A DNA stretch of 64,000 nt from an uncultured delta proteobacterium (GCA_963796685.1 CAWCMR010000025.1:576001-640000), one strand, 5' to 3'. Positions 8,185 through 29,698 are shown, counted from the first letter of the stretch. The notes: a model not told the origin generated them from the sequence alone. Numbers and translations: made by a program.

Positions 8185-8562
8185 TCTCGCGCCAGTTCCG
8201 CGGCTACACCTATCCACGACTCGCCGATATCCCGGGTTTCGAGCGGACCCTGTACCACGACCAGCTCATGCTCCCCAAGGGACCTGAACTCCGGGGAGAA
8301 CTACACGGATGCCGTCGCACACGACCTGTGGCCCGCCGGCCCCGCTCTCGTGCTGGGGCCGCCCGCCAGGGGACTTCCACCGCCCATGACGTGAGCTCGC
8401 GGGATTCGCCCTCGCCCGCCTGGTCGGTGCCTCCTGCTTCGGCGTTCGCCGCATCTGGCGTGGGCGGCGCTGGGGGGGTCGGCACCACCTTGGCGCGATC
8501 CTTGGCCGTGGTCGTCGCGGCCAGGCCCGGCCTGGTACACTCCCGGCCACACCTTGGAAACC

Positions 8563-9105
8563 ATGAGCACGCGCATTCTCTGCCTCGGCAACGAGCTCGT
8601 CCGGGACGATGGGGTCGGCATACGCATCGGGCAAATCCTGATGAAGCTGCGCTTGCCTGCCGACGTGCGCGTCGAGCTGGCTCCCCAGTTGGGCTTCGAT
8701 CTGCTCGAGGTCGTCGCCGGGGCCGAGCGCGTGGTGCTGGTGGATGCCATGGCCACGGGACGCGCGCCCGGAACCTGCGTCACCCTCGACGGCCGAGCCA
8801 TCGAGCATTACAGCGCCGGCGCCTCGGCCTCGCACAGCATCGGCATCGCCGAGCTGATGGATCTGGCGCACCGCCTGGCGCCGGCCCGCGCGGCTGCTTC
8901 CCTGCATTTCGTGGGCGTGGAAGGCATCGCGTTCGGCGAATACGGGACCGACCTGAGCCCCGAGGTCGAAGCGGCCATCCCCGAGGCGGTGGAAGCCGTT
9001 CTTCGGCTGGTTGGCGCGAACGCCGCGCTCCTGGCGGCCGGGAAAGCCGCCGCTCTGAGCAGCGAGGCGCTGCGACCCGGCATCCTCGGCGAGCCCGTTC
9101 CGTAG
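8563..9105 (+). CDS. [NiFe]-hydrogenase maturation protease (HyaD/HycI family)
   Basis: ILCLGNELVRDDGVG, VVLVDAM, SASHSIGI, FVGVEG, LSPEVEAAIP. Confidence 0.9.
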   Translation: MSTRILCLGNELVRDDGVGIRIGQILMKLRLPADVRVELAPQLGFDLLEVVAGAERVVLVDAMATGRAPGTCVTLDGRAIEHYSAGASASHSIGIAELMDLAHRLAPARAAASLHFVGVEGIAFGEYGTDLSPEVEAAIPEAVEAVLRLVGANAALLAAGKAAALSSEALRPGILGEPVP

Positions 9106-14389: not shown

Positions 14390-14430
14390 GAAAGATTGCG
14401 CACAAGCGGCGGCGCTCGGGTTTCTCAAGC

Positions 14431-15186: not shown

Positions 15187-15229
15187 TGTTCCCCCCCCCC
15201 GACGTTTGCCTTCCGCCACCAATCCGCGT

Positions 15230-15827: not shown

Positions 15828-15913
15828 GGTCCCTCCTCGTTGCCCGATGGTTTGGCTCGGGCACAGCTGCTACTATGCCGGGAGCGGCTCGTTTCGACGA
15901 CTCGCCTTTCACC

Positions 15914-16615
15914 ATGAACGATTTTTCCCTGCATTTGCCGACGAAGTCGCGGCGCCAGGGCGCAGACGAGCGCTCCCGTGCTCGCGTTTCCAAGGCCACC
16001 TTGCGGCTGAAGGCACGCCGAAATCCGAGGCAAGAACGCTCCCGGCAGACCGTGGAAGCCATCGTGGAAGCCGCGGGACGGCTTCTGGTGGAACACGGTC
16101 GGGCTGCGGTCACCACCAACGCGGTCGCGCAGCGGGCGTGGGTCTCGATTGGCTCCGTCTATCAGTACTTCCCCAACAAGGACTCGATCTTCTCGGCGCT
16201 GCAGGAGCGCCACCGCGGTCAAGTGATGCCGCTCATTCGCCTTGCCTTGGCACGGCTCGAGGATCCCGCCGAGGATCTCGTCCTCGGAATCGTGTCGCTG
16301 ATGAAAGCCATGGCGGAATTGAACCGGGATGATCCAGGACGGATGCGTGCCTTGGACGAAGATCTACTCGAGCGGTCGTCGGCCACCGACATTCAGGCAT
16401 TCGCCGATGCCATCGCAGGCCTCCTGGCCGCGCGCACGGGCTGCTCCGAGGACAGCCTGCGCCCTACGGCTTGGCTCGCGTCCCTGACCCTCACTCACGT
16501 GGGACGAACCCTGGTCCATCACCCGCCGCCACTCCCCATGCAACCGATCCTCGATTCGCTGACCTCGATGTTGCGTGGTCTATTTTCCCCCGATCCCCTC
16601 CCGGCTGGCCGCTGA
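15914..16615 (+). CDS. TetR/AcrR family transcriptional regulator
   Basis: PRQERSRQTVEAIVEAA, TTNAVAQRA.VSIGSVYQYFPNK; divergent from the methyltransferase. Start 15875 or 15914. Confidence 0.9.
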   Translation: MNDFSLHLPTKSRRQGADERSRARVSKATLRLKARRNPRQERSRQTVEAIVEAAGRLLVEHGRAAVTTNAVAQRAWVSIGSVYQYFPNKDSIFSALQERHRGQVMPLIRLALARLEDPAEDLVLGIVSLMKAMAELNRDDPGRMRALDEDLLERSSATDIQAFADAIAGLLAARTGCSEDSLRPTAWLASLTLTHVGRTLVHHPPPLPMQPILDSLTSMLRGLFSPDPLPAGR

Positions 16616-16789
16616 ATTCAAGCTGAGAAGCGTGTTTGGCATCACGGCCTCGGGTCGGGCAGAAGATTTGTGTGGGTTCTGACGCCGGGGTGCGCACTGA
16701 CCTGGTTCATCCAGTACGGCACGGGCGCGGCCACGCCTGCGGGCAGCACGCGGCCCCACTCGCGGCCGTAGGGATAGGCATACGTCGTG

Positions 16790-17090
16790 CCGAGTGGGTG
16801 TTTGATGGATGGCCAGCCCCTCGTGCTCGATGCGCTCGCGGAACGATGGTGGCAATGACTCGAACGTCAGCAGGTCCACTTCGAGCCCGAGCGCCGTGCA
16901 CAAGGCGACCTCGATCGATGTCGAGGTCTGCCCGTCCACATTGACGAGCACGATGTCGACGTCGCTGCGCACCCCGAATACCCCCAGGCCAGCGAGCCGA
17001 TGAGCCATGCCCGACCTCCGGCGGGAAGTTGTCCACGCACCAGCGCCACGGCCAGGCCATCGACTCGCGGTGCAAGACCCACTAAACTAG
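16790..17090 (-). pseudogene. Minimal nucleotidyltransferase (MNT) remnant
   Basis: RAWLIGSLAWG / FGVRSDVDIV..VDLLTFESLPPSFRERIEHEGL split by a frameshift near 16980. No clear start and no HEPN partner; boundaries approximate. Confidence 0.6.
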
Positions 17091-17174
17091 GACTCTCGGT
17101 TGCGTTCTCACAGCGCCCACGACAAATCATCCATGAATTTTCTGCATGCCATGTCGTGTTTTCATGGTACATGA

Positions 17175-18341
17175 ATGGTCATGCTCGATCGAGCCGGGCA
17201 TCTTGGCGCCATCAAGAAACTGTTCCAGTCCCATTCCGTCGTGGCCATCCTCGGCCCGCGCCAGGTGGGCAAGACCACCTTGGCCAGGCGCTATGCCGAA
17301 ACCCTCCGATCCCGCGCGCACCACTTCGATCTGGAAGACGCAGACGATCTCGCCAGGCTTAGCGATGCCAAGCTGACCCTCGGACGGCTCCGTGGCTTGG
17401 TCGTCATCGATGAAATCCAGCGGCGGCCCGAGCTTTTCCCCACCTTGCGGGTGCTGGTGGACACCCCCAAAGCATCTTTGCGGTTTCTCGTGCTCGGCAG
17501 CGCTTCACCCGAGCTCCTCAAGCAATCCTCCGAAACCCTCGCCGGGCGCGTCGCCTACCACGAGCTTACCGGCTTTTCCCTCGAAGAGGTCGATCCTCGG
17601 CGCATGGATCGGCTCTGGCTGCGTGGTGGATTTCCCCGCTCCTTCTTGGCCAAATCCGATCCGGCCAGCCAGGACTGGCGCGCAGGCTTCGTCCGCACCT
17701 TCCTTGAACAAGACCTGCCCCAGCTTGGCCTGAATTTGCCGGCCCCTCAGCTGCGACGCTTTTGGACCATGGTCGCCCACTACCACGGCCAGATCTGGAA
17801 CGCCTCCGAGATTGCCGCATCCATGGGGATTTCCGATACGACGGCCCGTCGCTATTTGGATCTGCTTGCGTCCACGTTCATGGTGCGCCCGCTCCCTCCC
17901 TGGGCCGAAAACCTCGGCAAGCGCCAAGTAAAATCCCCGAAGATTTACTTCGCCGATAGCGGAATCCTGCACACCTTGCTTGGCTTGCGCACCATGGGCG
18001 ACCTAGAAACCAATCCCAAGCTCGGTGCCTCCTGGGAGGGTTTCCTCCTTGGCGAGGTCGTCTCGCGACTCGATGTCGACAAGGAGGAATGCTATTTCTG
18101 GGCAACCCACCAAGGCGCCGAGCTGGATCTACTGGTCGTGCGCGGACACCGACGCCTTGGCTTTGAATTCAAGCGGACCTCGTCGCCCACGATCACCAAG
18201 TCGATGCATATCGCCATGCAAGACCTGAAGCTGGATCAGCTGACGGTGATTCACGCGGGCGAGCACAGCTTCCCTCTCTCCAACGAAATCCGAGGCGTTT
18301 CTGCCCATCACCTGCTTACCGAGATCCGCCCCCTGCGCTGA
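17175..18341 (+). CDS. AAA_14 ATPase with DUF4143 domain
   Basis: GPRQVGKTT, VIDEIQ, LGSAS, LAGR, RGGFP, KSPKIYFADSG, ELDL..GFEFK. Confidence 0.9.
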   Translation: MVMLDRAGHLGAIKKLFQSHSVVAILGPRQVGKTTLARRYAETLRSRAHHFDLEDADDLARLSDAKLTLGRLRGLVVIDEIQRRPELFPTLRVLVDTPKASLRFLVLGSASPELLKQSSETLAGRVAYHELTGFSLEEVDPRRMDRLWLRGGFPRSFLAKSDPASQDWRAGFVRTFLEQDLPQLGLNLPAPQLRRFWTMVAHYHGQIWNASEIAASMGISDTTARRYLDLLASTFMVRPLPPWAENLGKRQVKSPKIYFADSGILHTLLGLRTMGDLETNPKLGASWEGFLLGEVVSRLDVDKEECYFWATHQGAELDLLVVRGHRRLGFEFKRTSSPTITKSMHIAMQDLKLDQLTVIHAGEHSFPLSNEIRGVSAHHLLTEIRPLR

Positions 18342-18421
18342 GGTGGACGGGCAGGCTCGCGCACGTCCGCTTTGGAGAGTGCACCACGCGGTAGGGCCGC
18401 GACCGAGGCCAACGTTCCTCG

Positions 18422-20008
18422 CTACGGCGTGATCTGCGTGAAGTCCACCAGGTTACCGGTCATCATCAGCAGCGACAGCGCCGTCCATGATTTCTGGTAG
18501 TAGATGGTTCCGGCGTTGAGGTTCAAGGTGGCCACGGCGGCGTAGGCGGCGTCGAGGAATGCCTGGTACTTGGCATCGCTCATGGCGCCCACGCCCGCGG
18601 GACCGACGAACGAGGCCGCCTGGGTGCCGTTCACGGCACGATCGGGTTTCGGGGTTCCATTCAACTCGTAGCCATCAACGATGTTGGCCACGCCGACGCC
18701 AACGTAGAAGGACGTGATCTTGGCCAGGTAGCTCTTGGCGCGCGGCTCGCCGAAGAAGCAGTCGTCCTCGCCCACGCGGAAGGGCGTGCGCGTGGAGTCG
18801 TTCTGAAAATACATGGGCGCACCCGAGTACGGGGAGACGGGTGTGCCGGAGGAATCGCACCAGGCGGGCACGAGGCCGTTGTCGGCGTTGCCGCTCTGGG
18901 TGTTGAGGCTGCGCTCGAGGATGTCGTAGTTGCCCGCGATGACCTTGTTCCAATCGTCGACCTTGCCCGTCACCTGGCCGAAGACACGATAGTAGGCCGG
19001 CGCGAAGTACGACGGGTTGGTGACGTCGACGTTGCCCCACTGGTCGCCCGGCTTGAGCATGTCGTTGCGGGTCTGGTCGACCTCGAGGCTCCAGATGAGG
19101 CCAATGAGCTTCTTGGCATGGTTGAGATAGGTGTCGGACAGCGCCCCCTTCCCACCCCACTGCTTGTCGGCCATGACCAAGGCCCAGGCCATGTCCTCGT
19201 CGCCGTCGGTGGCGGCGCCCGTGCCGCCCGAGGTGACCTTGCCGTCGGGGCCGATCTCCCAGTTCATGAGGCCATTGCCGTCGAGATAGAGCTGCTCGTA
19301 GTTCCACAGGTCGTCGAACAACTTCTGGTCGTTCATGTACACGGCCAGGATCATCCCGTAGCCGATCCCCTCGGACACGGTCGAGCCGATGACCGTCCCC
19401 GAGTCGGGCTTCTTCACGCGCTCGAAGCCGCTGGCGCCGTCGGAGGTGACGGTCGCGTCCTTCCAAGCCTGGTAGGCCGCCTTCACCTTGTCGTTGTCGT
19501 AGGCCGTGGGATAGGTGCAGTACTGCCCCTTGTAGTTCTGCGGGAAGGGATAGGCGACGCCGGGTGAGCTGGTCGCGCCGCCGCTGCCCGTGGCCCCGCC
19601 CGTCGCGGTGAAGCTGCCGCCGGTCGCGGCATTGCCCCCGCTGCTCGTGGTTCCGCCGGTCATCAGGGCGCCGCCAGTGCCTGGGATCCCACCGGTCGTC
19701 ATGACGCCGCCGCTGCTGGTCGCGCCGCCAGCGGCCTTCGTTCCGCCCGTGCTCGGCACACCGCCCGATCCTATCGCCCCGCCGCTGCCCACGACGCCGC
19801 CCGAGGCGCTGCCACCACTACCCACCATGCCGCCGCTGCTCGCGATGCCGCCCGTGGCCGACGCCCCGCCATGACCGGTTGCCCCACCGGTGGCCACCGT
19901 CCCGCCGCTGCCCGAGGATTGGGTCGAACCTTTGGTCGTGCAGGCCGCGCCCACCTGGCATGCGAGCACGAGGGCAAGGACGAGAGATCCGCTGCTTGAA
20001 CGGGTCAT
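18422..20008 (-). CDS. Glycoside hydrolase family 8 lipoprotein (endoglucanase/lichenase-like)
   Basis: Lipobox GAAC, Gly-rich linker, TVSEGIGYGM, AATDGDEDMA, NPSYFAP, NDSTRTPFR. Confidence 0.9.
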   Translation of the reverse strand: MTRSSSGSLVLALVLACQVGAACTTKGSTQSSGSGGTVATGGATGHGGASATGGIASSGGMVGSGGSASGGVVGSGGAIGSGGVPSTGGTKAAGGATSSGGVMTTGGIPGTGGALMTGGTTSSGGNAATGGSFTATGGATGSGGATSSPGVAYPFPQNYKGQYCTYPTAYDNDKVKAAYQAWKDATVTSDGASGFERVKKPDSGTVIGSTVSEGIGYGMILAVYMNDQKLFDDLWNYEQLYLDGNGLMNWEIGPDGKVTSGGTGAATDGDEDMAWALVMADKQWGGKGALSDTYLNHAKKLIGLIWSLEVDQTRNDMLKPGDQWGNVDVTNPSYFAPAYYRVFGQVTGKVDDWNKVIAGNYDILERSLNTQSGNADNGLVPAWCDSSGTPVSPYSGAPMYFQNDSTRTPFRVGEDDCFFGEPRAKSYLAKITSFYVGVGVANIVDGYELNGTPKPDRAVNGTQAASFVGPAGVGAMSDAKYQAFLDAAYAAVATLNLNAGTIYYQKSWTALSLLMMTGNLVDFTQITP

Positions 20009-20020
20009 CCTGAAAGTCTA

Positions 20021-21838
20021 TCACTCGCGCCGGTCGCCCGAGTCGTCTACTTCCGCGCCCGAGACGATGGCTGCCAGCTCGGCGATGGCGCGCGCGGCAG
20101 GGGCGGTCTCGGGCTCGCCCGGTCCCAAGGTGGCCATGCCCAACCCTTCGCCAGCGCTGTCGAACAGGCGACAAGTCAGCACCATGCTGTTGCGGTCGGT
20201 GACCCGTACCGAATCCACCTCGGCCAGCGGCAGCAGCATACGCGCCCGCGAAACCATCTCGCCGGCCACCGCCGCGAACGCAGCCAAGCCTTCCTGCACC
20301 GCGGACTCGCCCGCGCCGGCGATGAGGAAGCCCTGAGCGTCGGCCAGTACGGCCGTGCGCGGACCGCCTGGACCCACCAGCGAGTGCAGGTTGGTCTCCA
20401 TGTCCGACACCGGGTTTTGCGCCAGCAGCTCGCCGCTGACGACCGGCATCTCGCGGCTGGCGTACAAGCCGCTGGCATAGAGCTGCGCCTCCAGATCCTT
20501 TTCCCGGCGGCGCAAGTACGCGACTTCCTCGACCAGCGACGCGGCCTCCGCGGCCTGCGCGCGCAAGGAGACCAGCTCGTTGCGATCCTGCAGCAGCTCT
20601 TGCAGCCGACGCGCCATCAGCTCGGCGTCCAGACGCAGCTGCTTGTGCGCGATGGTCAAACGCTCGAGCTCGCCGCTCGCTTCCTGGTGCTGGCGCAGCT
20701 CGGCCGCCTCATCGCGCAACCTGCGATTTTCCTCGAGCACATCGCCAAGCTCCACCAGCTTGGCTTGCGCCGCCGCGAGCTCGACCTTGACATCTTTGAC
20801 CTCCCTGGCCTCGTCCCCACGCCCCGCCTGCCACTCGGCCTCGCGCACGAGCTCCGCTTGTTGCGCGCGCAGCCCGGCGTTTTCCTGCACCAGGCGATCC
20901 AGGGTGGCCAGCCGGGTTTCGGCCGCGCGCAGCGCCTCGTCCGCAATCCTGCCCTGTTCGCGTTCGTGCGCGACGGCCTCCTCCAGTGCGCGCAGGCGTA
21001 TTGCAAGCTCCGACTTCTCGGCCAGCCCGTCCTGCCCCGCCGCCTCGACACGCTCGAGCTGCTCGACGAGCCGTTGCTTCTCGGCCTGCGCGCTTGCCTG
21101 CGTCGACCGCAACGCCTCGTCGGCCGCGACCACCCTTCCCTGCCACGAAGCCTCGACCTCCGCGATACGGCGAAGCGCCTCGCGCTCGCGCCCCTCGGCC
21201 GCCAAGAGCGCCTGCTGCAGGCCATCGCGTTCCGCCTCCCATAGCACGTGCTCCTCGACGAGACGCGCCTGCTCGGCCGCCAACCTTTCGGACTCGGCGC
21301 GCCGCTGCTCCAACTCCTCGACCAGGCGTGCTCGCTCGGCCTCGTGTCGGCCGACCTCGGCGCGTAGCTGCCCGAGCTCCTCGCGCTGGACCTGGTCCTG
21401 GCGCTTCTGCTCGGTCTGGGTGGCTTGCAGCTGCGCGCCCCAGGCCTCGGCCTGCTTCTCCTCGCGCTCGAACGCCTCGCGATTCCGATCCTCGGCGATG
21501 CGCAGGCGCTCGGCCAGGGTCCGCTCCCTGGCGGACAGTCGTTCGATCTCGGCGCGCGCGCCGTCACGCTCGCGCTCGGCCAGCGCGCACTTCTCTTCCT
21601 CCAGCTTTCGTGTGCCGGCCTCGGCCTTGTGCTCGGCCGTGGCGTCGGCAAGCGCGACCTCGCTACTCTTCTGTTCCAGGCGCAGGCGTTCGAGCTCGCC
21701 TTCCAGGTCCTCGTGCCGACGGACCTCCTTGCCGAGATCGACATCGCCGCCACGCGGCCGGCGCAGCAGGAACCCGGCCAGGAAGAAGGCCAGCGCGGCG
21801 ACCAGGCTTGCGGCGATGAGGTAGACGAGAAGCGACAT
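20021..21838 (-). CDS. Membrane-anchored long coiled-coil protein with C-terminal roadblock/LC7-like domain
   Basis: N-terminal TM; ~420 aa of E/R/A-rich heptads; C-terminal RTAVLADAQGFLIAG..GLAAFAA resembles a roadblock fold. Confidence 0.7.
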   Translation of the reverse strand: MSLLVYLIAASLVAALAFFLAGFLLRRPRGGDVDLGKEVRRHEDLEGELERLRLEQKSSEVALADATAEHKAEAGTRKLEEEKCALAERERDGARAEIERLSARERTLAERLRIAEDRNREAFEREEKQAEAWGAQLQATQTEQKRQDQVQREELGQLRAEVGRHEAERARLVEELEQRRAESERLAAEQARLVEEHVLWEAERDGLQQALLAAEGREREALRRIAEVEASWQGRVVAADEALRSTQASAQAEKQRLVEQLERVEAAGQDGLAEKSELAIRLRALEEAVAHEREQGRIADEALRAAETRLATLDRLVQENAGLRAQQAELVREAEWQAGRGDEAREVKDVKVELAAAQAKLVELGDVLEENRRLRDEAAELRQHQEASGELERLTIAHKQLRLDAELMARRLQELLQDRNELVSLRAQAAEAASLVEEVAYLRRREKDLEAQLYASGLYASREMPVVSGELLAQNPVSDMETNLHSLVGPGGPRTAVLADAQGFLIAGAGESAVQEGLAAFAAVAGEMVSRARMLLPLAEVDSVRVTDRNSMVLTCRLFDSAGEGLGMATLGPGEPETAPAARAIAELAAIVSGAEVDDSGDRRE

Positions 21839-21846
21839 GAAGAACC

Positions 21847-22561
21847 TCAGTGAATCGCGATCTCGACCCTTCGGTTGTGCGCCTGGGCCGCTATCGAATC
21901 AGCCGAGCGGTCACCCGCGAGCGGCCGCGTCGAGCCGAATCCTTGGATGTCCATGCGCGCGGGATCGACCCCGTGCCCTTCAAGCCAGCGAGCACACCTG
22001 CGCGCGCGTTCCAGCGACAGCGCGCGATTCGAGCTCTTCCGGTCCGACGCTGTCGCTGTGCCCGCTTATCACGACCCGCCGGCTGGGTTGCTCGGCGAGG
22101 GTCGCGGCAACCTGGGCAAGGACCTCGCGTGCCGGTGACGACAACCAACTCGTGTTTCGCGCAAAGAGCAGGTTGGGAAACCCTGGGGGGGTGGGCTCGG
22201 CCGACGGCGAGGATTCGCCGGTTGGCGACACCGCCTCGGCGAGTGGCGGCGCGGTCTTGGCGGGCGGTGGTGCGACTGGCGCGAGAACCCTCGCCGCCGC
22301 AGGTACGGGCTCAGCCGTCCGCGGCGGCGCGGGCGGCAACCCCGGGCTCGGCCTTTCCGCCGAGACCGGTACGCGCAAGGCCGGTCTCGAGCGCGTGGCA
22401 CCGCTCAAATAGCGGGGCAGCAGCACGAGGTCGATGGCGGCGAGGTCGCCCACCCCGAGCAGCAGCAGTCCCGCCGCCAGCGCGTGGCGCACGAACGTCG
22501 ACGACTGGGCTGTCGCACCACCGGCGCCCTCGGACCGATGCGCGTACCCCTGCGCTGTCAT
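21847..22561 (-). CDS. OmpA/MotB-like peptidoglycan-binding protein (frameshift near 22030)
   Basis: TM, Pro-rich linker, LLFARNTSWL, VVISGHSDSVG, then in a shifted frame NRALSLERA..IQGFGSTRP..NRRVEIAIH*. Confidence 0.85.
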
Positions 22562-22569
22562 GATCGCCT

Positions 22570-22950
22570 CTAGGCGGAGGCGGCGATGGCCTTGCCCAGC
22601 TCCACGCAGCGACGCTTGACCTCGATGAACACCAGGCCCAGCTTCGCGTCCTTGCTGGTCAGCACCACCAGCACCGAATCGGCGCCGACCGCGTTGAGGA
22701 CCACATAGCCCTTCTCGCTGCGCACGTAGACCTGCTCCATGGTCGAGGCCATGAGCTCGGAGGAGATGCGCTCGCCGACGCCCAGCATGGCCGCCGCCAT
22801 GCCCGAGACCAGCTCCTCGTCGACCTCGGCGGGCAAGACCGAGGCCACGATGAAACCATCGATGCTTACCACCGCGGCGCCGATGATGTCAGGCGAGGCC
22901 CCACGAAGGCCGCGCAAGATGTCCTGCATTTTTTCCGTACGAGAAGCCAT
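22570..22950 (-). CDS. Roadblock/LC7 domain protein (MglB-like)
   Basis: IIGAAVVSIDGFIVAS, VSGMAAAMLGVGERIS.EL, KLGLVFIEVKR. Confidence 0.9.
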   Translation of the reverse strand: MASRTEKMQDILRGLRGASPDIIGAAVVSIDGFIVASVLPAEVDEELVSGMAAAMLGVGERISSELMASTMEQVYVRSEKGYVVLNAVGADSVLVVLTSKDAKLGLVFIEVKRRCVELGKAIAASA

Positions 22951-22973
22951 GGTCCATTCCTCCTAGGTTGCGA

Positions 22974-23693
22974 TTAGTTGCGAATTTGGAATTTCATGGT
23001 GCATTGGCCGACCGTGCCGAGCGTGGCGACGGTGTAGCTCTTGCCCGAAAAGGCGCTCATGAGCCCGGCGAAGTACTCATGAAACAGCTCGCACAAATTG
23101 GCGCTGCCGGCAATCTCTCCTTGCGCTGCGACCACTTTGTGCAGGGCGCAGCTTGGAAAGGTCAGGGACACGGTGGTCCCGTCCGCCTCGATCTTGGCGT
23201 CGAAGTCGAAGGCGTGAACGAAACGGCGGCGCAGGCCCGCCAGCAGGTCCTCCATGCGCGAGGACTCGTACATCTCGGGCATGTGGGCGGCGGCCAGGTT
23301 GCCCGCCGAGCGCCCCACGGCCCGTTGTCCGCGCCCCATGATCTCTTTGAGCGCGTCGGCCAAGGCCTTGAGCCGCACGTGCGTGTCCTTGAGCGCCTCG
23401 TCGTAGTCGGCCTGGCCGAGTTGCTCGGTCGCGGGGATCTGCTGCAGAAAGCGCGACACCAGCGCGGCATGGGTTTCCATGCGGTGAAACGGCCGCTGCA
23501 ACTTCGCGTCGGTCACGGTCAGACAGCGCGACGGGCACAGGTACACGCAAGACGTGCAGCCGATGCAGTCCTCTTGGCGGACGACCTTGGCCAGCTTCTT
23601 CGACGTTTCCTCCTCGAACACCTTGGTCGGGCAGATTTCCACGCACAGGCCGCAGTCGCGGCAGCCGGATTCTTCGATGTGAACCGTGGGCAC
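22974..23693 (-). CDS. 2x[4Fe-4S] ferredoxin fused to V4R-like domain
   Basis: CRDCGLCVEICP and CIGCTSCVYLCP; C-terminal FPSCAL..NLCELFHEYFAGL..CTMKF. Confidence 0.8.
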   Translation of the reverse strand: MPTVHIEESGCRDCGLCVEICPTKVFEEETSKKLAKVVRQEDCIGCTSCVYLCPSRCLTVTDAKLQRPFHRMETHAALVSRFLQQIPATEQLGQADYDEALKDTHVRLKALADALKEIMGRGQRAVGRSAGNLAAAHMPEMYESSRMEDLLAGLRRRFVHAFDFDAKIEADGTTVSLTFPSCALHKVVAAQGEIAGSANLCELFHEYFAGLMSAFSGKSYTVATLGTVGQCTMKFQIRN

Positions 23694-23696
23694 AGG

Positions 23697-25100
23697 TCAC
23701 CTCCTTGCCGTGCGAATGGTTTGCCCGCCCTGCCACAGGTTGATTTCCATGGGCATTTGCCCCACGCGATGGGTGGAGCAAGACAGGCACGGGTCGTAAC
23801 AGCGAATCGCGAATTCCACGCCGTCCAGCAAATCGCTGTCGCTCTTGTCGAGCAATTGCGTGGCCGCGTTCTTGATGGTGGTGTTGATGCTGGCGATATT
23901 GTGCTGGGTCGCCACCACGAAATTGGCCGCTTCGATGATGGCGTTTGCGTCCACGTGGTAGTCGTGGATCAGCACCCCGCGCGGAGCCTCGACGTGGGCC
24001 ACGGCGTGGCGGTTGATGGCGCCGGGGGCGGTGCGCACCTCGGGCGAGCGAATGGCCTCGTCGGAGAGCATGGCCACGGCCTTTTCCGCGCAGTGGAGAA
24101 TTTCCACCAGGCGCGCCCAATGCCCGGCCACGATCTGGCTCGACGGGTCGCCGCACGTCGCTTTGAATTCCGCCAGGGCGGCATCGGCCAACGGCGTGCC
24201 CGTGGCCTCGGCGCAATTGAGCCGGGCCAGCGGGCCGACGCGGTAGGGGTGCGTGGCCCCGCTTGCGTCCTTGAGCAAGACCTGCTTGCCGTAGCTGTGC
24301 GGCAGCGCCTCCTCGACGAGATGGGTGGCGTAGTCGGCGCCTACGAAATCCAGGGCCACGCTGCCGTCGGGACGGCGCACGCGCAGCTTGCCGTCGTACA
24401 GATCCAGGTTCTTGCCCTGCAGCGTTCCCATGTCGCTGGTCGCGAGCGGCAAGCGGGTCAGGAGCTTCGGATCCTTGAGCAGGGCCTTCTTGCCGGCATC
24501 GAGGACCACCTTGGCCAGCTCCAGCGCCTCGGCGGCCAGCAGCTTCAAGGTGTCATGATTTTGCGACGTGAGCGCGAAGGACATACCACCTGCCACCGCG
24601 GTCACCGGATGCGTGCCCCGGCCGCCGACGATCTCCACCATGGTCTGGCCGATGCTGCGCAGGCGCAGGGCCTTCTTGGCGAGCTCGGGCGCGGCCTCGA
24701 GCAGACCCACGAGATTGCGTTTTTGCACCGGGCTCGACTGCCCGAGAAACAGATCGGGACCGGCCAGGGCGAAGAAATGGATGGCGTGCGAGTGGATCAT
24801 GCTGCCGCAGTTGAGCAGTTGGCGCAGCAGCAAGGCGGCCCTGGGGGGCGGCGCCGAGAACATGACGTCCAAGCACTTGGCGGACACCAGGTGGTGGGCA
24901 TGCGGGCAGGTGCCGCAGATGCGCGTGGTCAGGGTGGGCATGAGCTCGGCCTGCATGCCCTGCACGAAGCGCTCGAAGCCGCGAAACTCGAGCACGTGCA
25001 GCGTGGCCGCGCCGACCTTGCCGTCGTCGCCGATTTCGATGTGCACCTTGGCGTGACCCTCGATGCGCGTGACGGGATTGATGGTGAGTTGGCGGCTCAT
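23697..25100 (-). CDS. [NiFe]-hydrogenase large subunit, group 3 (MvhA/HoxH-like)
   Basis: Start MSRQLTINPVTRIEGHAK; L1 TRICGTC; EAPRGVLIHDY; L2 RCYDPCLSCSTH followed by a cleavable C-terminal tail. Confidence 0.93.
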   Translation of the reverse strand: MSRQLTINPVTRIEGHAKVHIEIGDDGKVGAATLHVLEFRGFERFVQGMQAELMPTLTTRICGTCPHAHHLVSAKCLDVMFSAPPPRAALLLRQLLNCGSMIHSHAIHFFALAGPDLFLGQSSPVQKRNLVGLLEAAPELAKKALRLRSIGQTMVEIVGGRGTHPVTAVAGGMSFALTSQNHDTLKLLAAEALELAKVVLDAGKKALLKDPKLLTRLPLATSDMGTLQGKNLDLYDGKLRVRRPDGSVALDFVGADYATHLVEEALPHSYGKQVLLKDASGATHPYRVGPLARLNCAEATGTPLADAALAEFKATCGDPSSQIVAGHWARLVEILHCAEKAVAMLSDEAIRSPEVRTAPGAINRHAVAHVEAPRGVLIHDYHVDANAIIEAANFVVATQHNIASINTTIKNAATQLLDKSDSDLLDGVEFAIRCYDPCLSCSTHRVGQMPMEINLWQGGQTIRTARR

Positions 25101-26032
25101 CGGGCGGCTCCTTGCTGCGCGATCCAGCGCCGCAGAAGAAAGGTCGGCTTCTGACGAAACACCGGCGAGGCCATGGCGTAGGCGTAATAGGTCTTGGCCT
25201 GCTTCTCGATCTCGGCGGTGATGGCGGGCTTGGGAATCTTGGTCATCATGGACATGCGCGTGGCGATCTCGGTGCGGATGTCGCGATTCGGCTCGAGCAC
25301 GATGGCCTCCGACGGCCCCGTGCAGCCCGAGCACGGCATGCCACGGGTCGGGCAGGCGCCGCGGCAGCGATCGAGCGTGGCGCTGCCCATGCACAGGATC
25401 CCCTGCGAGAGAAAGCACGTGTCCTGCTCTATCGGGCCCTCGTGCACCCGGCGCAGGGCCGACACCTCGGTGTGTTTCATGTGGCGGTCGCAATGGAAGC
25501 ACACGTTGTGCTCGCCGAACTCGGGTGGCTTGCCGTGCAGCACCGATTTGAGCGCCTCGAAGACGTAGAAGGCGTGCGGTGGACAACCTGGCAGATAGAG
25601 ATCCACCGGAATCACGGCGTCCACCGGCAACACGCCTTCCGCGAGCAGCTTGGGCACCCCCTGGTCGGGCACGAAATGGGTCGAGGTGGTCGGGTTCTTC
25701 ACGAAGGCCGACTCGGCCAGCTCGCTTTGCGCGTGGGCGTAGCCCGAGCCCTGCGGTCCGCCGTAGACGCCGCACGTGCCGTAGGCCAGGATGGCGGCGC
25801 AGCTTGCCCGCATCTTCTTCGCGCACTCCACGTCGTGGTCGGTGCGCAGGGCTCCGGTGATGATGCCGAGCGCGGCCTTGGGGTAGTCCTTCACGTCCAT
25901 CAAGATGGGCAGGCGAACGATGTCGATCTCTTCCAGCACGGCCAGCAGGCGCTCGTGCAGATCGACGATGGAAAGCTCGCAACCCGAGCAACCGGAAAGC
26001 CATTCGAACGAAACCGTGACCTTGGCCATCAT
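25097..26032 (-). CDS. [NiFe]-hydrogenase small subunit (MvhG-like, three FeS sites, no Tat signal)
   Basis: WLSGCSGCE, GTCGVYGG, LPGCPP, VCFHC, CFLSQGILCMG, CRGACP..PCSGCTG; ATGA overlap with the large subunit. Confidence 0.9.
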   Translation of the reverse strand: MMAKVTVSFEWLSGCSGCELSIVDLHERLLAVLEEIDIVRLPILMDVKDYPKAALGIITGALRTDHDVECAKKMRASCAAILAYGTCGVYGGPQGSGYAHAQSELAESAFVKNPTTSTHFVPDQGVPKLLAEGVLPVDAVIPVDLYLPGCPPHAFYVFEALKSVLHGKPPEFGEHNVCFHCDRHMKHTEVSALRRVHEGPIEQDTCFLSQGILCMGSATLDRCRGACPTRGMPCSGCTGPSEAIVLEPNRDIRTEIATRMSMMTKIPKPAITAEIEKQAKTYYAYAMASPVFRQKPTFLLRRWIAQQGAAR

Positions 26033-26049
26033 TCCCCTCCTGGTTTCTC

Positions 26050-26535
26050 CTAGCCCTGCAACATGAGCTCTTTGAGACAGGCGTTCTCCCCGGCGTGCAG
26101 GATTTCCAGCTCGGCGCGCTTGCCGGTGATCTTCTGCACGTACCCGCAGAACAGGCCGTGGTTCATCATGCACAGCGATTGCTTCTGCTCGTGGCCATAG
26201 CGGAACAGGGCGCAGCGAACCATGCAGTTCCGGAATACCAGCTTGACCGCCTGCTTGCCATCTTTCTCGTAGAGGAAGCTCTTTTCTGCGGCCGGCTTCC
26301 ACGCTTCGAAGGGCCACTCGATGCCGTTGGCCCTGAGCGCCTCGCCCACCTTGCCGAGAGCGACCAGGATGTCGCTTTCCTTTTCGGCGATGCTGCTCTT
26401 GAGACCCACGGTCTTGCCCGACCGAAACGTCACGGTCTCGGCCCCGCGGCCGAGAACCTGTTCTAGACCATGCGACAGCGAGGCCATGACCACGAGCAGG
26501 CCTTGCAGTTCATCCCTTGTTTCAGACGGACCCAT
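26050..26535 (-). CDS. Stand-alone V4R-like domain protein
   Basis: GGAGG RBS; FRNCMVRC..SLCMMNHGLFCGYVQKITGK..ENACLKEL Cys pattern. Confidence 0.7.
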   Translation of the reverse strand: MGPSETRDELQGLLVVMASLSHGLEQVLGRGAETVTFRSGKTVGLKSSIAEKESDILVALGKVGEALRANGIEWPFEAWKPAAEKSFLYEKDGKQAVKLVFRNCMVRCALFRYGHEQKQSLCMMNHGLFCGYVQKITGKRAELEILHAGENACLKELMLQG

Positions 26536-26599
26536 ACTGTCCTCCGATCTAGGTAACGCGCCAGACGACACCCGAGAAGACACGCCCAAGCGTGCCGAT

Positions 26600-27604
26600 C
26601 TAGCGCGTCGACTTGCTCTCTAGTTTTTTCAGGTTGAGATCCAGGGAACGGTTATCGGGATCGAGCTCTTTGGCGGCGAGCCAGCACTGGCGCGCCTCCT
26701 CCACCTTGCCGGCCCGCAGAGCCGCGAAGCCCTTGTCCACCAGCGACGCCGCCGCGCCGACCGGCCGAGGGGCCTTGCGAGACTCGGAGGGAACCAACGC
26801 ATTCATCGCCCGGCGCTCGCTGGGCGCGCCGTCGCCACCGGGCGAGGAGATCTTCTCGAATACGGAATTCTCGACGCGAATGGCGGGAAAGGATCCGGTC
26901 TGGCGCGGCGAGGAATTGGCGCGCTCGTCGAGCGTCCGCACGGCCTCCATCAAGGCGAACTGCCAATTGCCGTGAATGTTCGGCTCGACGTCGTTGGGTA
27001 GGGGCGTGGTGCGAAAGACGCCGTCCTGGGCGTCCAGAATGGAGCACAGCGCTTCGTGCCCCACGAGCGGGCCCCACGAGGCGTGGAAGAGCTTGCCCTC
27101 CTTCACCATGACCGAGCCGGCCTCGCCGTGAGCGGTGATACGAAGCGCTGCGGTCCTTTGGGCTAGACAAAGCATTTGAATGAGGTCTGCTGCGGAAAGG
27201 GCCGAGAAGCACCCGGACAAGCGATGTATGCAATCGAGCGCTTCGTTGACGATCTTTAACACTTCTTTTGGCTCACATGGCTTTGGCAGAAGACGCAAGC
27301 AGCCAAGACCAGAGACGCGTTGCTGTAGCTGACGGACGTCGTCGTTGGTTTGCACCACGAACAAGGTCTCGGGAAACTCGATAGCGCCCCAGCAGACCAG
27401 ATCCACACCACCGGCGCTGGGCAGATCGGCATCCGTGATCAGGACATCGATCCCGACATCGCGCATGACATTACGTGCCACATCGGCCGAGGCGGCGAGC
27501 ATGACGTCGAAATTCTCGCCGCCCTCATAAAGAACGCGGTGGAGCGCAAGGGATGCCTCCTTGTCTCCGTCGACGATCAAGACCTTCGGGCGACGTCTCC
27601 CCAT
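26600..27604 (-). CDS. Response regulator: REC + DUF4388 (PATAN) + C-terminal TPR-like helix pair
   Basis: KVLIVD..VLITD..LPKP; LSAADLIQMLCLAQRTAAL..GKLFHA..GHEAL..DGVF; LVDKGFAALRAGKVEEARQCW..LDPDN. Confidence 0.85.
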   Translation of the reverse strand: MGRRRPKVLIVDGDKEASLALHRVLYEGGENFDVMLAASADVARNVMRDVGIDVLITDADLPSAGGVDLVCWGAIEFPETLFVVQTNDDVRQLQQRVSGLGCLRLLPKPCEPKEVLKIVNEALDCIHRLSGCFSALSAADLIQMLCLAQRTAALRITAHGEAGSVMVKEGKLFHASWGPLVGHEALCSILDAQDGVFRTTPLPNDVEPNIHGNWQFALMEAVRTLDERANSSPRQTGSFPAIRVENSVFEKISSPGGDGAPSERRAMNALVPSESRKAPRPVGAAASLVDKGFAALRAGKVEEARQCWLAAKELDPDNRSLDLNLKKLESKSTR

Positions 27605-27629
27605 CTGCCTCCGGCTATATCGATCTTCT

Positions 27630-27661
27630 GGGCCGCAAACTGTACTTCTAGGGCCGCAAAC
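27630..27661. promoter_or_regulatory. 11-bp direct repeat upstream of the hydrogenase-signalling cluster
   Basis: GGGCCGCAAAC at 27630-27640 and 27651-27661 (21-bp period). Confidence 0.35.
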
Positions 27662-27833
27662 AGCGCTTCGCTTGCGGCTTTTCAGAACGGCGGCTCCGAT
27701 ATTACAGCCACCTTGCTACCTTCGCTGGCCCGGTCTCCGAACATCAACGAATACGGAAGAACGATGCCAGACCGGACGAGGCGTCATTTTGCGCCCAAGG
27801 CCCGCCCGGGATCCAGCAAATTCGCGCCGGGAT

Positions 27834-29436
27834 CTACATCGGCGAGATCGACGTGTAGTCGAGGTAATTGGCCGTCATCATGAGCAGCGAAAGCACCATC
27901 CACGAATCGTCGTAGTAGGTGCCGCCCACCAGCGCCTTGCCTGTCACGAGCACCCCGTAGGCGTCGTTGACGAAGGTCTGGTAGCTGGAGTTGCTCATGG
28001 CGCCGACGCCGGCAGGACCGACGAACGCCGAGGACTGAATCTGCGCGTTTGCACCAGTCTGGTACTGGGCGTGGGCCGTCCCGTTCAGGTCGTAGCCGTC
28101 GACGATCTTGGTGGCGCCGCCAACCGACGTCCCGCTGAAGAAGCTGCTGGTCTTGGCCACGTAGGCCTGCGCCCGCGAGTCGCCGGTCCAGCAGTAGTCG
28201 AGCCCGATGCGGAACGGGGTTCTGCACGAGTCGTACTGGTAGTTCGTCGGCGACGCCCCGCCCGTGGCTCCGAAGGCCCCGCCATTCGGCGCGCCGTTGG
28301 TGTCGCACCAGGCCGGCACAAGCCCATTGTTGGCGTTGCCGCTCGACGAGTTTAGCGATTTGGCCAGAACGTCGTACATGGCGTCCGTGAGCGCCTTCCA
28401 GCCGCTCGCGTTCGCGGTGTCGACCTTGGCGAAGAGCTTGTAGTAGGCGGGAGCGAAGTACGAGAGATTGATGGGGGGCACAGACGTGGTCGGCCAGGGG
28501 GACAGGTACTTGCCCGAATTGACCTCTTTGTTCCAGAATCTTGCCGATGGTCTCTTGGGCCCAATCGATATAGGTCCTGGTCGAGGAGCCTTTGCCGCCC
28601 CATTGCTTGTCGGCCATGACCATGGCGAAGGCCATATCCTCGTCGGCGTCCGAGGCCGGCCCCGCGCCTGACGGATTCGAGCCCACGTCCGAGCCGTCGG
28701 CCTTGATGTACCAGTTCATGAGGTAGGTCTGGGTATCGAGATGCGCCTGCTCGTACTTCCACAGATCGTCGAAGAGAGACTGATCATCCATGTACACCGC
28801 CAGGATCATCCCGTAGCCGATGCCCTCGGACACCGTCGAGTTCGGCTCCAGGCCGGGCTCGTTTGGCCGCTTCACGCGGCGGAAGCCATTGGCCCCGTCC
28901 GAGGTCACGGTGTCGTTCTTCCACTGCGCGTACATCGCCTGCACGTCCTCGTTGCGGTAGAGCGCGGGGTAGATGCAGTTGCTGTTCTCCCGGTTCTGAG
29001 GAAAGGGGAAATTGGTGGTGCTCGTATGCACGGTGGGACCGCGCGATGGCGCCGGGGGAGGCGCATCGGCGGTGTCGACAGCCGCGTCGGGGATCGTGCT
29101 GGTTCCGCCCGCGCCACCCGCACCGCCAAAGGCCGTCGCTCCCCCGGTACCCGCGGAGCCGCCACCGCCGCCCTCCGACTTGGTTCCACCCGTTCCCCCG
29201 CTTCCCCCCGAGGCGGTGGCTCCACCCCCGCCCGCGCTTCCGCCCGCGGCCGAGCTTCCACCCGTCGACGCGTTTCCACCCGCTCCGCCCTGCCCACCCG
29301 CGCTCGATCCGCCGGAGCCACCGGTGCCGGGCGGGGTCCGTGGGCTCTCCGTGGGCCTACATGCCGCGATTCCGCAAAACGTGACGAGAGCTGCTGTCCA
29401 GACTGGAGCCTGCAGGATTCGACGAGGAAACATCAT
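27834..29436 (-). CDS. Second GH8 lipoprotein paralogue (frameshifted near 28480-28540)
   Basis: Lipobox IAAC, Gly linker, TVSEGIGYGMILAVYM, ASDADEDMA in ORF 27784..29496; continues NLSYFAP..YDSCRTPFR..LSLLMMT in ORF 27834..28481. Confidence 0.85.
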
Positions 29437-29556
29437 GTCGTTCAATCCCAAGTGCAATCCCGAGTGGGGTGGGTCATTTCCTGGTTGTAAGAACACCTAA
29501 CCCTGCCTGATCGCGCATGGAAAATCTAGAGGGGCAACGCCCGTGGCCCGGGACCT

Positions 29557-29665
29557 GACCTCTAAGGAAGCCAGGAAAGCAGGAAGAAAGAGTTGAAATC
29601 AAGCGCGTCATGGTCTCCCCAAGGCCACACTACCCCTTCCTGGCTTCCTCGCTTCCTTAGAGGTC
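29557..29665. repeat. 30-bp imperfect inverted repeat (MITE/REP-like)
   Basis: GACCTCTAAGGAAGCCAGGAAAGCAGGAAG (29557-29586) pairs with CTTCCTGGCTTCCTCGCTTCCTTAGAGGTC (29636-29665). Confidence 0.75.
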
Positions 29666-29698
29666 TCCTTACGCGCGCAATCGCGTAGGCTTGCGCGC

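Follow-up and report, generated by a model that had tools for sequence, protein, structure and literature searches.

Why genes for a [NiFe] hydrogenase should be packed together with genes for receiver, roadblock and peptidoglycan-binding proteins is the question raised by a locus of an uncultured delta proteobacterium, located in a window of 64,000 nucleotides (the whole stretch of DNA that was analysed). Eight ORFs, all on the minus strand, occupy positions 20021-27604 of the window (Table 1) and are separated by spacers of 64, 17, -4, 3, 23, 8 and 8 nt, in line with the eight tightly packed, co-oriented genes of the initial annotation. A GH8 gene lies 12 nt past g8 on the same strand. Based on a comparison of genes and gene neighbourhoods, the cluster is proposed here, with slightly better than even confidence, to encode a sensor derived from a cytoplasmic [NiFe] hydrogenase of the Mvh type, with outputs that have been swapped between lineages.

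Table 1. Genes of the hydrogenase cluster and the maturation protease, with positions counted from the first nucleotide of the window.
Feature	Position	Strand	Description	Evidence
g1	26600..27604	-	receiver + DUF4388/PATAN + TPR-like C-terminal tail, 334 aa	Pfam
g2	26050..26535	-	V4R-superfamily-like protein, 161 aa	alignment; homology to g5 C-terminal domain
g3	25097..26032	-	MvhG/VhuG-like small subunit, 311 aa	Pfam Oxidored_q6, NCBIfam VhuG
g4	23697..25100	-	[NiFe] large subunit, 467 aa	Pfam NiFeSe_Hases, PDB, NCBIfam VhuA
g5	22974..23693	-	2x[4Fe-4S] ferredoxin + V4R-like domain fusion, 239 aa	Pfam Fer4 families, alignment
g6	22570..22950	-	roadblock/LC7 protein, 126 aa	Pfam Robl_LC7
g7	21847..22561	-	OmpA-like peptidoglycan-binding protein, frameshifted near 22030	Pfam OmpA, tblastn
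g8	20021..21838	-	TM helix, coiled coil, roadblock-like C-terminus, 605 aa	hydropathy, Pfam, hhalign
HycI-type maturation protease	8554..9105	+		Pfam HycI 7.8e-13

The hydrogenase subunits had been labelled MvhG-like and MvhA-like, and both labels are borne out by the best matches. The large subunit (g4) belongs to NiFeSe_Hases (Pfam, 7.5e-28), its top PDB match is MvhA (5odc, 6.1e-105) and its best NCBIfam model is VhuA, at 335 bits and thus under the 800-bit equivalog cut-off. Its L1 and L2 motifs (RICGTCPHAHH and DPCLSCSTH) are intact, with C62, C65, C438 and C441 invariant in the alignment, and a C-terminal extension of 23 residues follows DPCLSCSTH. The small subunit (g3) was assigned to Oxidored_q6 (Pfam, 1.3e-23), and its best NCBIfam model is VhuG (190 bits, under the equivalog cut-off of 450 bits). 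It is of the long, three-cluster type, carries 13 cysteines that are invariant among 30 clade members, and measures 311 aa compared to 162-224 aa in diaphorase-linked loci. Its C-terminal tail is conserved, specific to the clade and unlike the tail of MvhD-linked enzymes, while no twin-arginine motif could be read from the translated N-terminus. The HycI protease of the window is 67% identical to the protease located directly after g8 in one relative (L011), and in most relatives such a gene adjoins the core; judged from this homology, the protease belongs to this hydrogenase and has been displaced by ~11 kb. The hyp genes are located elsewhere in the genome.

Whether the enzyme groups with MvhD- or diaphorase-linked hydrogenases, as the initial annotation had asked, was examined in large-subunit trees, in which it formed a clade of its own. 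Thirty-five large subunits (the window and 34 loci) fall into this clade (UFBoot 100, SH-aLRT 99), which has a stem length of 0.52 in the tree of 81 rows, was recovered in 100% of 200 bootstrap trees, and has MvhD-adjacent enzymes as its nearest neighbours. Phylogenetically, the hydrogenase is Mvh/Vhu-like but lies in a separate, strongly supported clade, which on gene content is defined by a four-gene core consisting of a V4R-like protein, the small subunit, the large subunit and a ferredoxin-V4R-like protein. Among the 80 best-scoring loci taken in each scan, many of them closely related so that locus counts are not independent events, g2-like and g5-like genes both flank the hydrogenase in 34 and neither does in 45, L027 being too short to judge these neighbours or the roadblock gene. 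Not one of the 36 core loci yielded FlpD/MvhD, even with the window covered over its full 64 kb, whereas all seven nearest-outgroup loci did. A search of the genome likewise gave no FlpD/MvhD match in the 64-kb window, nor was a CCG/HdrB match present there. NuoE/F/G-like genes were absent from the core loci and the window, had tblastn matches elsewhere in the genome, and as partners are confined to more distant loci. The reported lack of mvhD, hdrB, hoxEFU and a Tat signal in the window was confirmed in this way, and the comparison of loci shows a loss of MvhD/Hdr from the core.

A canonical group 3c enzyme might still work in trans with MvhD/Hdr-like complexes encoded elsewhere, the signalling neighbours being coincidental. 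Five FlpD/MvhD matches and CCG/HdrB matches at C3 and C10 are indeed present in the genome, none of them beside a hydrogenase, and could in principle provide electron acceptors, which also speaks against a sensor; MvhA/VhuA and VhuG are, moreover, the best PDB and NCBIfam matches. We regard this explanation as very improbable in view of the distribution of MvhD between core and outgroup loci, the long and fully supported clade stem, the distinct small-subunit tail and the synteny with signalling genes across three phyla.

The partners kept by the core are the V4R-like proteins. The start of g2 is most likely the ATG at 26535, which is preceded at 5 nt by GGAGG and coincides with the point at which its orthologues begin. 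No Pfam family at E<=0.01 and no NCBIfam family was assigned to g2, and Pfam V4R (PF02830, cut-off 31 bits) did not match the window protein itself, was sub-threshold in nine of 28 orthologues (best E 0.051), and was detected in seven of 10 longer family members (8.6e-5 to 0.0098), always under 31 bits. The g2 protein is homologous to the C-terminal domain of g5 (hhalign 96.9%, E 2e-10), and its ESM Atlas leads are TRAPP, ATC_hydrolase and V4R clusters. The g5 domain has an ATC_hydrolase match of 6.5e-4 and 21 bits, below the cut-off of 28.1 bits, while the ferredoxin part of g5 has its nearest match in the MvhB polyferredoxin (9sw6_G, 1.3e-15). Taken together, the name "V4R-like", proposed for g2 and for the g5 fusion, holds at the superfamily level only; the ferredoxin half of g5 was correctly described, and its C-terminus has the sub-threshold match just mentioned. 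Three cysteines and one histidine are invariant in the alignments of both proteins (C104, H115, C122 and C153 in g2; C182, C201, H205 and C231 in g5). In Geobacter-type loci the counterpart of g5 is split into a ferredoxin and a V4R-like gene. The wider family includes tandem V4R-like proteins, ferredoxin-V4R-like proteins and one kinase-like fusion, and the 10 longer or multi-stretch members scanned, of 107 representatives, included none in which the domain is fused to an MCP, histidine kinase or cyclase.

V4R has been proposed, in general terms, as a small-molecule-binding domain (PMC2614490), which leads to another reading: the V4R-like domains would bind a small molecule, the hydrogenase would reduce this ligand, and the neighbours would sense the product. 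The recurrence of fusions between electron-transfer and V4R-like domains (g5, P0145, and ESM leads to rubredoxin-linked RdxA_C clusters) is consistent with such an H2-driven reductase, as is the invariant Cys3-His set. As the core has no conserved neighbours for biosynthesis or transport, and no ligand can be named, we consider it unlikely.

The remaining genes point to signalling and to the cell envelope. In g1, a receiver (Response_reg 3.1e-9, 37.4 bits, cut-off 30.2), which by eye has the typical Asp (LITD) and Lys (LPKP), is followed by DUF4388 (4.2e-16, 59.5 bits, cut-off 25) and by a TPR_2 match under its cut-off (1.2e-4). The last ~50-77 aa are common to Ser/Thr kinases encoded at the same position in L015 and L021 (36-38% identity); on this evidence the signalling head of the upstream gene is swapped (REC-PATAN or kinase) and the TPR tail is kept. 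The window cluster itself has no kinase. Apart from the roadblock gene g6 (Robl_LC7, PF03259, 1.3e-13, 50.9 bits, cut-off 23 bits), the genome has a single Robl_LC7 gene. The g6 protein is 81-94% identical across aligned Myxococcota orthologues (up to 98% by tblastn) and more conserved than the large subunit across them. An mglBA-like pair is located at C18, away from the cluster, and g6 is 27% identical to the MglB-like protein of this genome. For g7, the OmpA match (PF00691, 5.1e-6, 27.2 bits) is exactly at the cut-off and covers the first frame only; the domain runs on in the second frame, and orthologous proteins align in two frames (tblastn). As four close relatives (L094, L095, L098, L099) have a single open frame, the frameshift is regarded as limited to this assembly. 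One N-terminal hydrophobic helix was found in g7 (hydropathy maximum 2.13, residues 30-48) and an N-terminal TM helix in g8 (maximum 2.63, residues 3-21). No Pfam family was assigned to g8 at E<=0.01; a putative coiled coil, taken as the ~430 aa between its helix and the C-terminal domain, precedes a C-terminus that may be roadblock-like, with a weak Robl_LC7 match (E 0.017, 15.3 bits), an hhalign match to the g6 family (E 6.3e-5 but 64% probability), an ESM lead of 0.83, and LAMTOR5 (0.0042) in the counterpart from L024. Of the domain names first given to these four proteins, roadblock for g6, REC-DUF4388 for g1 and the TM helix of g8 can be retained as they were; the TPR part of g1 is sub-threshold, the OmpA domain of g7 is not complete in one frame, and the roadblock label of g8 is weak.

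A survey of the neighbourhoods of homologous hydrogenases, which the initial annotation had called for, revealed that signalling neighbours are kept across three phyla in differing gene orders. Myxococcota loci carry the roadblock, OmpA-like and TM-coiled-coil-roadblock-like genes, with REC-PATAN-TPR or Ser/Thr kinase-TPR upstream and no GTPase in this type of cluster. Acidobacteriota loci are rearranged, with roadblock, REC-PATAN/DUF4388 and ParA-like ATPase or small Ras-like GTPase genes that are upstream or divergently transcribed, and L170 is a second case of GTPase plus roadblock. A roadblock gene is present in 17 of the 19 loci of the non-Geobacter subclade and absent within 10 kb in L026, a core locus with full flanks; only L022 and L025 have a PAS-histidine kinase next to the system. 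Among metagenome contigs that reach far enough, g3 (46/46), g4 (31/31), g5 (26/26), g6 (23/23) and g8 (22/22) are always present and OmpA nearly so (20/23); of 50 upstream genes, 33 are g1-like and 13 encode a Ser/Thr kinase. The Mvh-like Geobacter cluster near chemotaxis genes, mentioned in the initial annotation, belongs to the same enzyme clade with a different output: Geobacter, Geomonas and Pelobacter loci have the same four-gene core in the same clade, and the Geobacter-type subclade has an MCP in each of its 16 loci, six of them with CheW directly upstream. In these Geobacterales loci the MCP resembles Aer2 and lacks a hydrophobic N-terminus (soluble). In the loci compared, the core is always beside signalling genes, and which ones differs by lineage; these neighbourhoods show that it is genetically linked to lineage-specific signalling modules.

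Could the enzyme instead be a metabolic, ferredoxin-coupled cytoplasmic hydrogenase, with the V4R-like proteins as structural or electron-transfer subunits, and neighbours that position or regulate it so that signals flow inward? The catalytic ligands, the three cluster sites with their 13 invariant cysteines, the C-terminal extension and a HycI protease of its own are all kept, as they would be in a working metabolic enzyme. The resemblance of the g5 ferredoxin domain to MvhB and the anchor-like hydropathy of g7 and g8 also fit. In addition, the Mvh of G. sulfurreducens (GSU2416-2423), a cluster that includes an MCP annotated as MvhV, is treated as metabolic rather than sensory in passages of PMC7894505 and PMC8691401. 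The consistent presence of the MCP in Geobacter-type loci (a set of fetched loci that does not include the one from G. sulfurreducens) and the retention of the core while outputs are swapped argue against this explanation, as do the separate Hox-type hydrogenase with diaphorase and the group-4-like enzyme already present in the genome, and the rarity of the system (three of 401 sampled genomes of the phylum). To our knowledge, no role of MCP or CheW in positioning enzymes has been described. A metabolic role is rated as possible but rather improbable.

Compared with group 3c (MvhADG/VhuAGD), the enzyme is alike in its two subunits, the long three-cluster small subunit and its cytoplasmic nature, but differs in the missing MvhD/Hdr of the 36 loci, its own g2 and g5 partners, its separate stem and its scores beneath the equivalog cut-offs. 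From group 3d (Hox, NAD-linked) it differs by the lack of a HoxEFU/NuoEFG-type diaphorase and by a small subunit longer than the HoxY type. Large subunits of group 2b lack a cleaved C-terminal extension. In partner genes and this extension, the features compared with group 2b, the window enzyme differs by having the extension and a HycI protease and no cluster kinase in place of the histidine-kinase partner. Sensory or putative sensory hydrogenases listed in PMC5037454 are the [NiFe] groups 2b (histidine-kinase-linked) and 2c (diguanylate-cyclase-linked) and the [FeFe] groups C1-C3, linked to kinase, MCP (C2) and phosphatase; in passages of its HydDB table, roadblock, PATAN or small-GTPase outputs are not given for any class, and in the paper the word "sensory" occurs once, in the heading of Group 2, and "chemotaxis" once, for [FeFe] C2. 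The underlying logic, a genetic tie between a hydrogenase and signal-transduction proteins, is the same here, whereas the enzyme is of the group 3 Mvh-like lineage with V4R-like adaptors. The output in the window (roadblock, OmpA-like, coiled-coil and REC-PATAN proteins) differs from the MCP and CheW of Geobacter-type loci and is reminiscent of MglA/MglB modules and PATAN regulators, through g6, g1 and the acidobacterial small Ras-like GTPase. In Synechocystis, response regulators of the PATAN type are reported to direct motility by type IV pili (bioRxiv 10.1101/2021.06.11.447907).

The initial proposal of a hydrogenase used as a sensor is supported in part, by the kept signalling neighbours and the separate clade, while we infer that H2 is the signal, that it flows outward from the enzyme, and that it passes via the ferredoxin and V4R-like proteins to the roadblock. 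In such a sensor, H2 oxidation at the Ni-Fe site would load the three small-subunit clusters and then the pair of clusters in the ferredoxin domain of g5, whose redox state would change the paired V4R-like domains; their invariant residues could, as a conjecture, form a metal or cluster site. The output protein of each lineage would read this pair. In the window it may be g6, which would bind the membrane-anchored g8 at its roadblock-like end; g7 would hold g8 at the wall, and g1 might couple the system to the control of motility or polarity. The MCP and CheW of Geobacter would take their input from the same core, which would lead to H2 or energy taxis. As its metabolic partners have been replaced by two small V4R-like proteins and signalling genes, though different between lineages, are always alongside, the hydrogenase probably informs the motility or polarity machinery of the hydrogen or redox state.

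The eight-gene, co-oriented cluster of the initial annotation was borne out with four corrections, most of its labels being backed by Pfam (see table), and the gaps between successive genes from g1 to g8 are 64, 17, -4, 3, 23, 8 and 8 nt. The translation start first described for g2 was replaced by ATG 26535, which lies just downstream of a GGAGG and is the most likely one. The OmpA-like label of g7 stands on a match exactly at the cut-off, but its frame is broken: orthologue proteins align across two frames and, since the gene is a single open frame in four close relatives (loci L094, L095, L098, L099), the break reflects misassembly or a recent lesion. Strongly hydrophobic segments are confined, among the cluster proteins, to g7 and g8, in both near the N-terminus. 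The large subunit g4 carries the motifs RICGTCPHAHH and DPCLSCSTH, the latter followed by 23 further residues, and its nearest relatives come from metagenome-assembled genomes (MAGs) named Polyangia or Myxococcales. The small subunit g3 has no twin-arginine leader, and 13 of its Cys are invariant among 30 relatives.

Features of the hydrogenase gene cluster and its surroundings in the window (feature, position, strand, remarks)
Feature	Position	Strand	Remarks
g1-g8 cluster	20021-27604	minus	eight ORFs
g1	26600-27604	minus	Pfam REC and DUF4388; TPR sub-threshold
g1 tail	26600-26830	minus	last 50-77 residues
g2		minus	V4R-like; no family matched in Pfam or NCBIfam
g3	25097-26032	minus	Pfam hydrogenase small subunit
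g4	23697-25100	minus	Pfam [NiFe] large subunit
g5	22974-23693	minus	Pfam 2x[4Fe-4S] domain
g6	22570-22950	minus	Pfam roadblock; 126 aa
g7	21847-22561	minus	Pfam OmpA, score equal to cut-off; frameshifted near 22030
g8		minus	C-terminus possibly roadblock-like; no family matched in Pfam or NCBIfam
GH8 gene, downstream	18422-20008	minus	glycoside hydrolase; 12 nt after g8
GH8 gene, upstream of g1	about 27784-29496	minus	
HycI protease	8554-9105	plus	cognate protease
Interval HycI to g8	9106-20020		besides GH8: DUF4143/AAA_14 ATPase, TetR regulator, FG-GAP repeat protein, DUF4384 protein
Lhr-type helicase	29699-34159	plus	1486 aa; DEAD, DEAD_assoc and Lhr winged-helix domains; divergent, upstream of cluster region

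The GH8 gene following g8 was added to the first description, and together with the second one it flanks the cluster. The downstream GH8 product begins with a lipoprotein-like leader and contains a linker rich in Gly, Ser and Thr, and GH8 genes also adjoin the system in two relative loci (L014, L028) and several metagenome contigs. The HycI protease shares 67% identity with the protease found directly after g8 in relatives; in the window about 11 kb separate the two, and this interval looks like an insertion or rearrangement. Scans of 17500-30000 were uninformative, with no promoter-like site and seven terminator-like sites, compared to 7.6 expected, and a scan of 17000-30000 at the Rfam gathering threshold gave no match.

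Relatives of the large subunit were collected from one genome per species: the scan matched 599 stretches, 590 of which were such relatives, and the 80 best loci were retained and searched by tblastn with the eight window proteins. Genes were called with a crude GC3-based script, the 996 ORFs within 7 kb of the large subunit were clustered, cluster representatives were annotated by Pfam, and maps were drawn per locus. In 34 of these 80 loci both g2- and g5-like genes surround the small and large subunits, forming a four-gene core, while 45 loci, with large-subunit identities of 44% or less, have neither; L027, only 2 kb long, was left out of this judgement. As the initial annotation had anticipated, the core-bearing hydrogenases among these best 80 loci keep signalling neighbours: the core is persistently linked to signalling genes, whose type and order depend on the lineage. 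In Geobacter, Geomonas, Pelobacter, Desulfocicer (L038) and locus L050 the order is (CheW)-V4R-like-small-large-ferredoxin-V4R-like-HycI-MCP, with the MCP in 16/16 and CheW in 6/16 of such loci; this MCP, which resembles Aer2, combines HAMP_2 and MCPsignal domains with a hydrophilic N-terminus. In Myxococcota the order is (REC-DUF4388-TPR or Ser/Thr kinase-TPR)-core-roadblock-OmpA-g8-(HycI). Two Acidobacteriota loci (L022, L025) show a divergent gene set adjoining HycI and the core, namely a PAS-histidine kinase, REC-DUF4388, a 132-140-aa protein, roadblock, a ParA/MinD-like ATPase and a weakly roadblock-like protein. A third (L023) carries, on one strand, DUF4388, a small Ras-like GTPase, two roadblock genes, HycI and the core, and a Desulfobacteraceae MAG (L024) has HycI-core-roadblock with a shorter g8-like protein. 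The 140-aa protein of L025 (c45) was considered as a GTPase of the L023 type and rejected, as no relationship was detectable.

The first tree, labelled like the second by gene context, comprised 81 large subunits (79 loci, the window, and the Hox-type enzyme of the source genome as outgroup); L045 was left out (best segment <380 aa) and in-frame TGA was read as X. The core-bearing enzymes formed one clade of 35 rows (SH-aLRT 100, stem length 0.52), which splits into an MCP-linked subclade of 16 rows and a roadblock-linked subclade of 19 rows, and a careful search with 55 rows recovered it with UFBoot 100 and SH-aLRT 99 and in 100% of 200 bootstrap trees. A roadblock gene is present in 17/19 loci of the roadblock-linked subclade; of the other two, L026 lacks one over 10 kb and L027 does not extend far enough to judge. 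The nearest neighbours of the core clade are seven loci, in all of which an MvhD (FlpD) gene adjoins, compared to none of the 36 core loci. Of 32 core loci, 31 have small subunits of 306-322 aa and one has a small subunit of 244 aa; the core small subunits have a conserved C-terminal tail of their own type. Those of MvhD-linked loci measure 297-306 aa, and in more distant loci NuoE/F/G-like partners accompany short small subunits (162-224 aa). The best solved relative of the large subunit is MvhA (5odc, 6.1e-105), followed by an Acetomicrobium NiFe enzyme and then an NAD-reducing enzyme. Both trees place the enzyme apart from the MvhD-linked and NuoE/F/G-linked enzymes, in a distinct Mvh-derived clade whose members share a fixed four-gene core and have lost MvhD.

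Metagenome contigs were also scanned with a g2 profile. The best 80 of 244 were retained, most of them closely related, and genes were counted only on contigs reaching far enough. On these, g3 (46/46), g4 (31/31), g5 (26/26), g6 (23/23) and g8 (22/22) were always present, the OmpA gene in 20/23, and upstream a g1-like gene in 33/50 or a kinase in 13/50. The GTPase-roadblock arrangement recurs in L170. Separately, six of the 120 loci carrying the L1 motif (L023, L025, L026, L027, L159, L170) have an in-frame TGA for its second Cys (RICGT*PQAHH; codon 65 of the large subunit, at locus position ~10193 in L023, L025 and L026), and the frame past it runs on to the normal DPCLSC end. This TGA is a candidate selenocysteine codon; a hairpin 3' of it is present, although not distinctive, and each of the five genomes searched, among them those of L023, L025 and L026, has SelA. 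In known [NiFeSe] enzymes selenocysteine lies in the C-terminal motif.

The g2 protein is homologous to the C-terminal half of g5 (hhalign 96.9%, E 2e-10), each having three invariant Cys and one invariant His. Neither attains the Pfam V4R cut-off; V4R was matched by 9/28 g2 orthologues (best E 0.051) and by 7/10 longer family members (E 8.6e-5 to 0.0098), DUF2507 by 5/28 orthologues, and ATC_hydrolase by g5 (6.5e-4) and its Geobacter counterpart (5.2e-5). Since V4R, ATC_hydrolase and DUF2507 belong to one Pfam clan, the V4R label given initially may reasonably be kept for both as V4R-superfamily-like, but not as membership of Pfam V4R itself. ESM Atlas features of g2 led to clusters with RdxA_C, TRAPP, ATC_hydrolase and V4R (TRAPP-domain score 0.92), and the profile of the g2 orthologue alignment gave two chance-level matches only among PDB sequences. 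In a database protein of 722 aa (P0144) a g2-like domain is fused to a kinase-like region.

Four weak signals agree that the C-terminal domain of g8 may be roadblock-like: Pfam (E 0.017), hhalign (E 6.3e-5 at 64% probability), a LAMTOR5 match of the L024 counterpart (0.0042) and an ESM lead of 0.83. The roadblock protein g6 is 81-94% identical over aligned Myxococcota orthologues (up to 98% by tblastn), compared to 57-85% for the large subunits, a mark of unusually strong constraint for its length. The g1 tail is common to the kinases taking the place of g1; in the window and in the genes upstream of the core in L015, L019 and L021 the same TPR-like tail (...ELDPxNR...NL..L) follows either a REC-PATAN or a Ser/Thr kinase head.

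The genes mvhD, hdr, hox, hyp and mglA, named earlier as worth seeking in the source genome (7.3 Mb, 26 contigs, completeness 88.6%, contamination 6.5%), all have counterparts outside the cluster. The genome encodes three large subunits in total. Contig C15 carries a Hox-type cluster, which includes NuoE/F- and NuoG-like genes and is adjoined by HypF; a group-4-like enzyme lies on C11, and HypA and HypB on C13. None of its five FlpD matches, nor of the CCG matches on C3, C10, C5 and a distant part of C25, adjoins a hydrogenase. Besides g6 there is a single roadblock gene (C18), adjoining an Arf/Gtr1-like 199-aa GTPase located through this neighbour, an mglBA-like pair; tblastn of the L023 GTPase against the genome gave no match at 1e-5. 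The g2 marker is rare overall, occurring in 3/401 genomes sampled from the phylum of the window (source genome included) and in 107 representatives at E<=0.001 among 1.84 billion proteins, and commoner in the family of Geobacter hydrogenophilus, with homologues in 19/87 genomes searched, single-contig genomes included.

On balance we lean towards the hydrogenase of the cluster being an H2 or redox sensor, as first proposed; strong comparative evidence supports this in part, and the mechanism is one that we infer. The signal would run from H2 through the clusters to the ferredoxin domain, the V4R-like pair and an output protein. The strongest argument is that unrelated outputs, MCP/CheW versus roadblock/PATAN/GTPase, were recruited to the same core, which is difficult to reconcile with a purely metabolic enzyme. 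Against the sensor reading stand, above all, the apparently fully catalytic make-up of the enzyme and the MvhD/Hdr partners encoded elsewhere in the genome.

TRAPP combines Bet3/V4R-fold and roadblock/longin-fold subunits acting on a small GTPase. By analogy, it is conceivable, if improbable, that a bacterial TRAPP-like assembly is made up of the V4R-like pair and the roadblock-fold proteins and acts on a small GTPase, gated by the redox state of the attached hydrogenase, so that H2 would directly switch a Ras-like polarity GTPase. Some Acidobacteriota have the gene for this GTPase within the cluster; in Myxococcota its part would be taken by the MglA-like protein, acting in trans. This proposal draws on the match of g2 to TRAPP-domain clusters (score 0.92), on loci L023 and L170, in both of which a GTPase gene and two roadblock genes immediately precede the core, and on the V4R-to-Bet3 relationship (PMC2253512, PMC3791482). 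V4R has been described as a domain that binds small molecules and from which Bet3 probably descends (PMC2614490, PMC3791482); PMC2253512 names the relationship in its title, and its accessible text has no occurrence of hydrogenase, roadblock or GTPase. PATAN response regulators have been tied to the type IV pilus motor (bioRxiv 10.1101/2021.06.11.447907).

Recognised sensory hydrogenases belong to [NiFe] group 2, and a sensory role has been proposed for [FeFe] group C. In the accessible text of the HydDB paper "sensory" occurs once, in the Group 2 heading, and "chemotaxis" once, for [FeFe] C2 (PMC5037454). According to the available parts of two proteomics papers, the Mvh cluster of G. sulfurreducens (GSU2416-2423) includes an MCP named MvhV, and Mvh possibly acts in hydrogen metabolism rather than uptake (PMC7894505, PMC8691401). 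The literature searched, with subscription papers and supplements outside its scope, contained no link of [NiFe] or group 3 hydrogenases to roadblock, V4R or MCP-based H2 sensing and no group-3 [NiFe] sensor proposal; a sensory proposal for Geobacter Mvh in such sources is possible.

If true, a group-3, Mvh-derived sensor with dedicated V4R-like adaptors would add a class of sensory hydrogenase and give a function to the long-unexplained "Mvh" enzyme of Geobacter. One core placed on chemotaxis arrays in one lineage and on roadblock/PATAN/GTPase polarity modules in others would be a natural experiment in the coupling of a redox enzyme to behaviour, and may also reveal how anaerobes seek or shun H2 in syntrophic settings. 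The family of Geobacter hydrogenophilus, with g2 homologues in 19/87 genomes searched, opens the matter to direct experiment.
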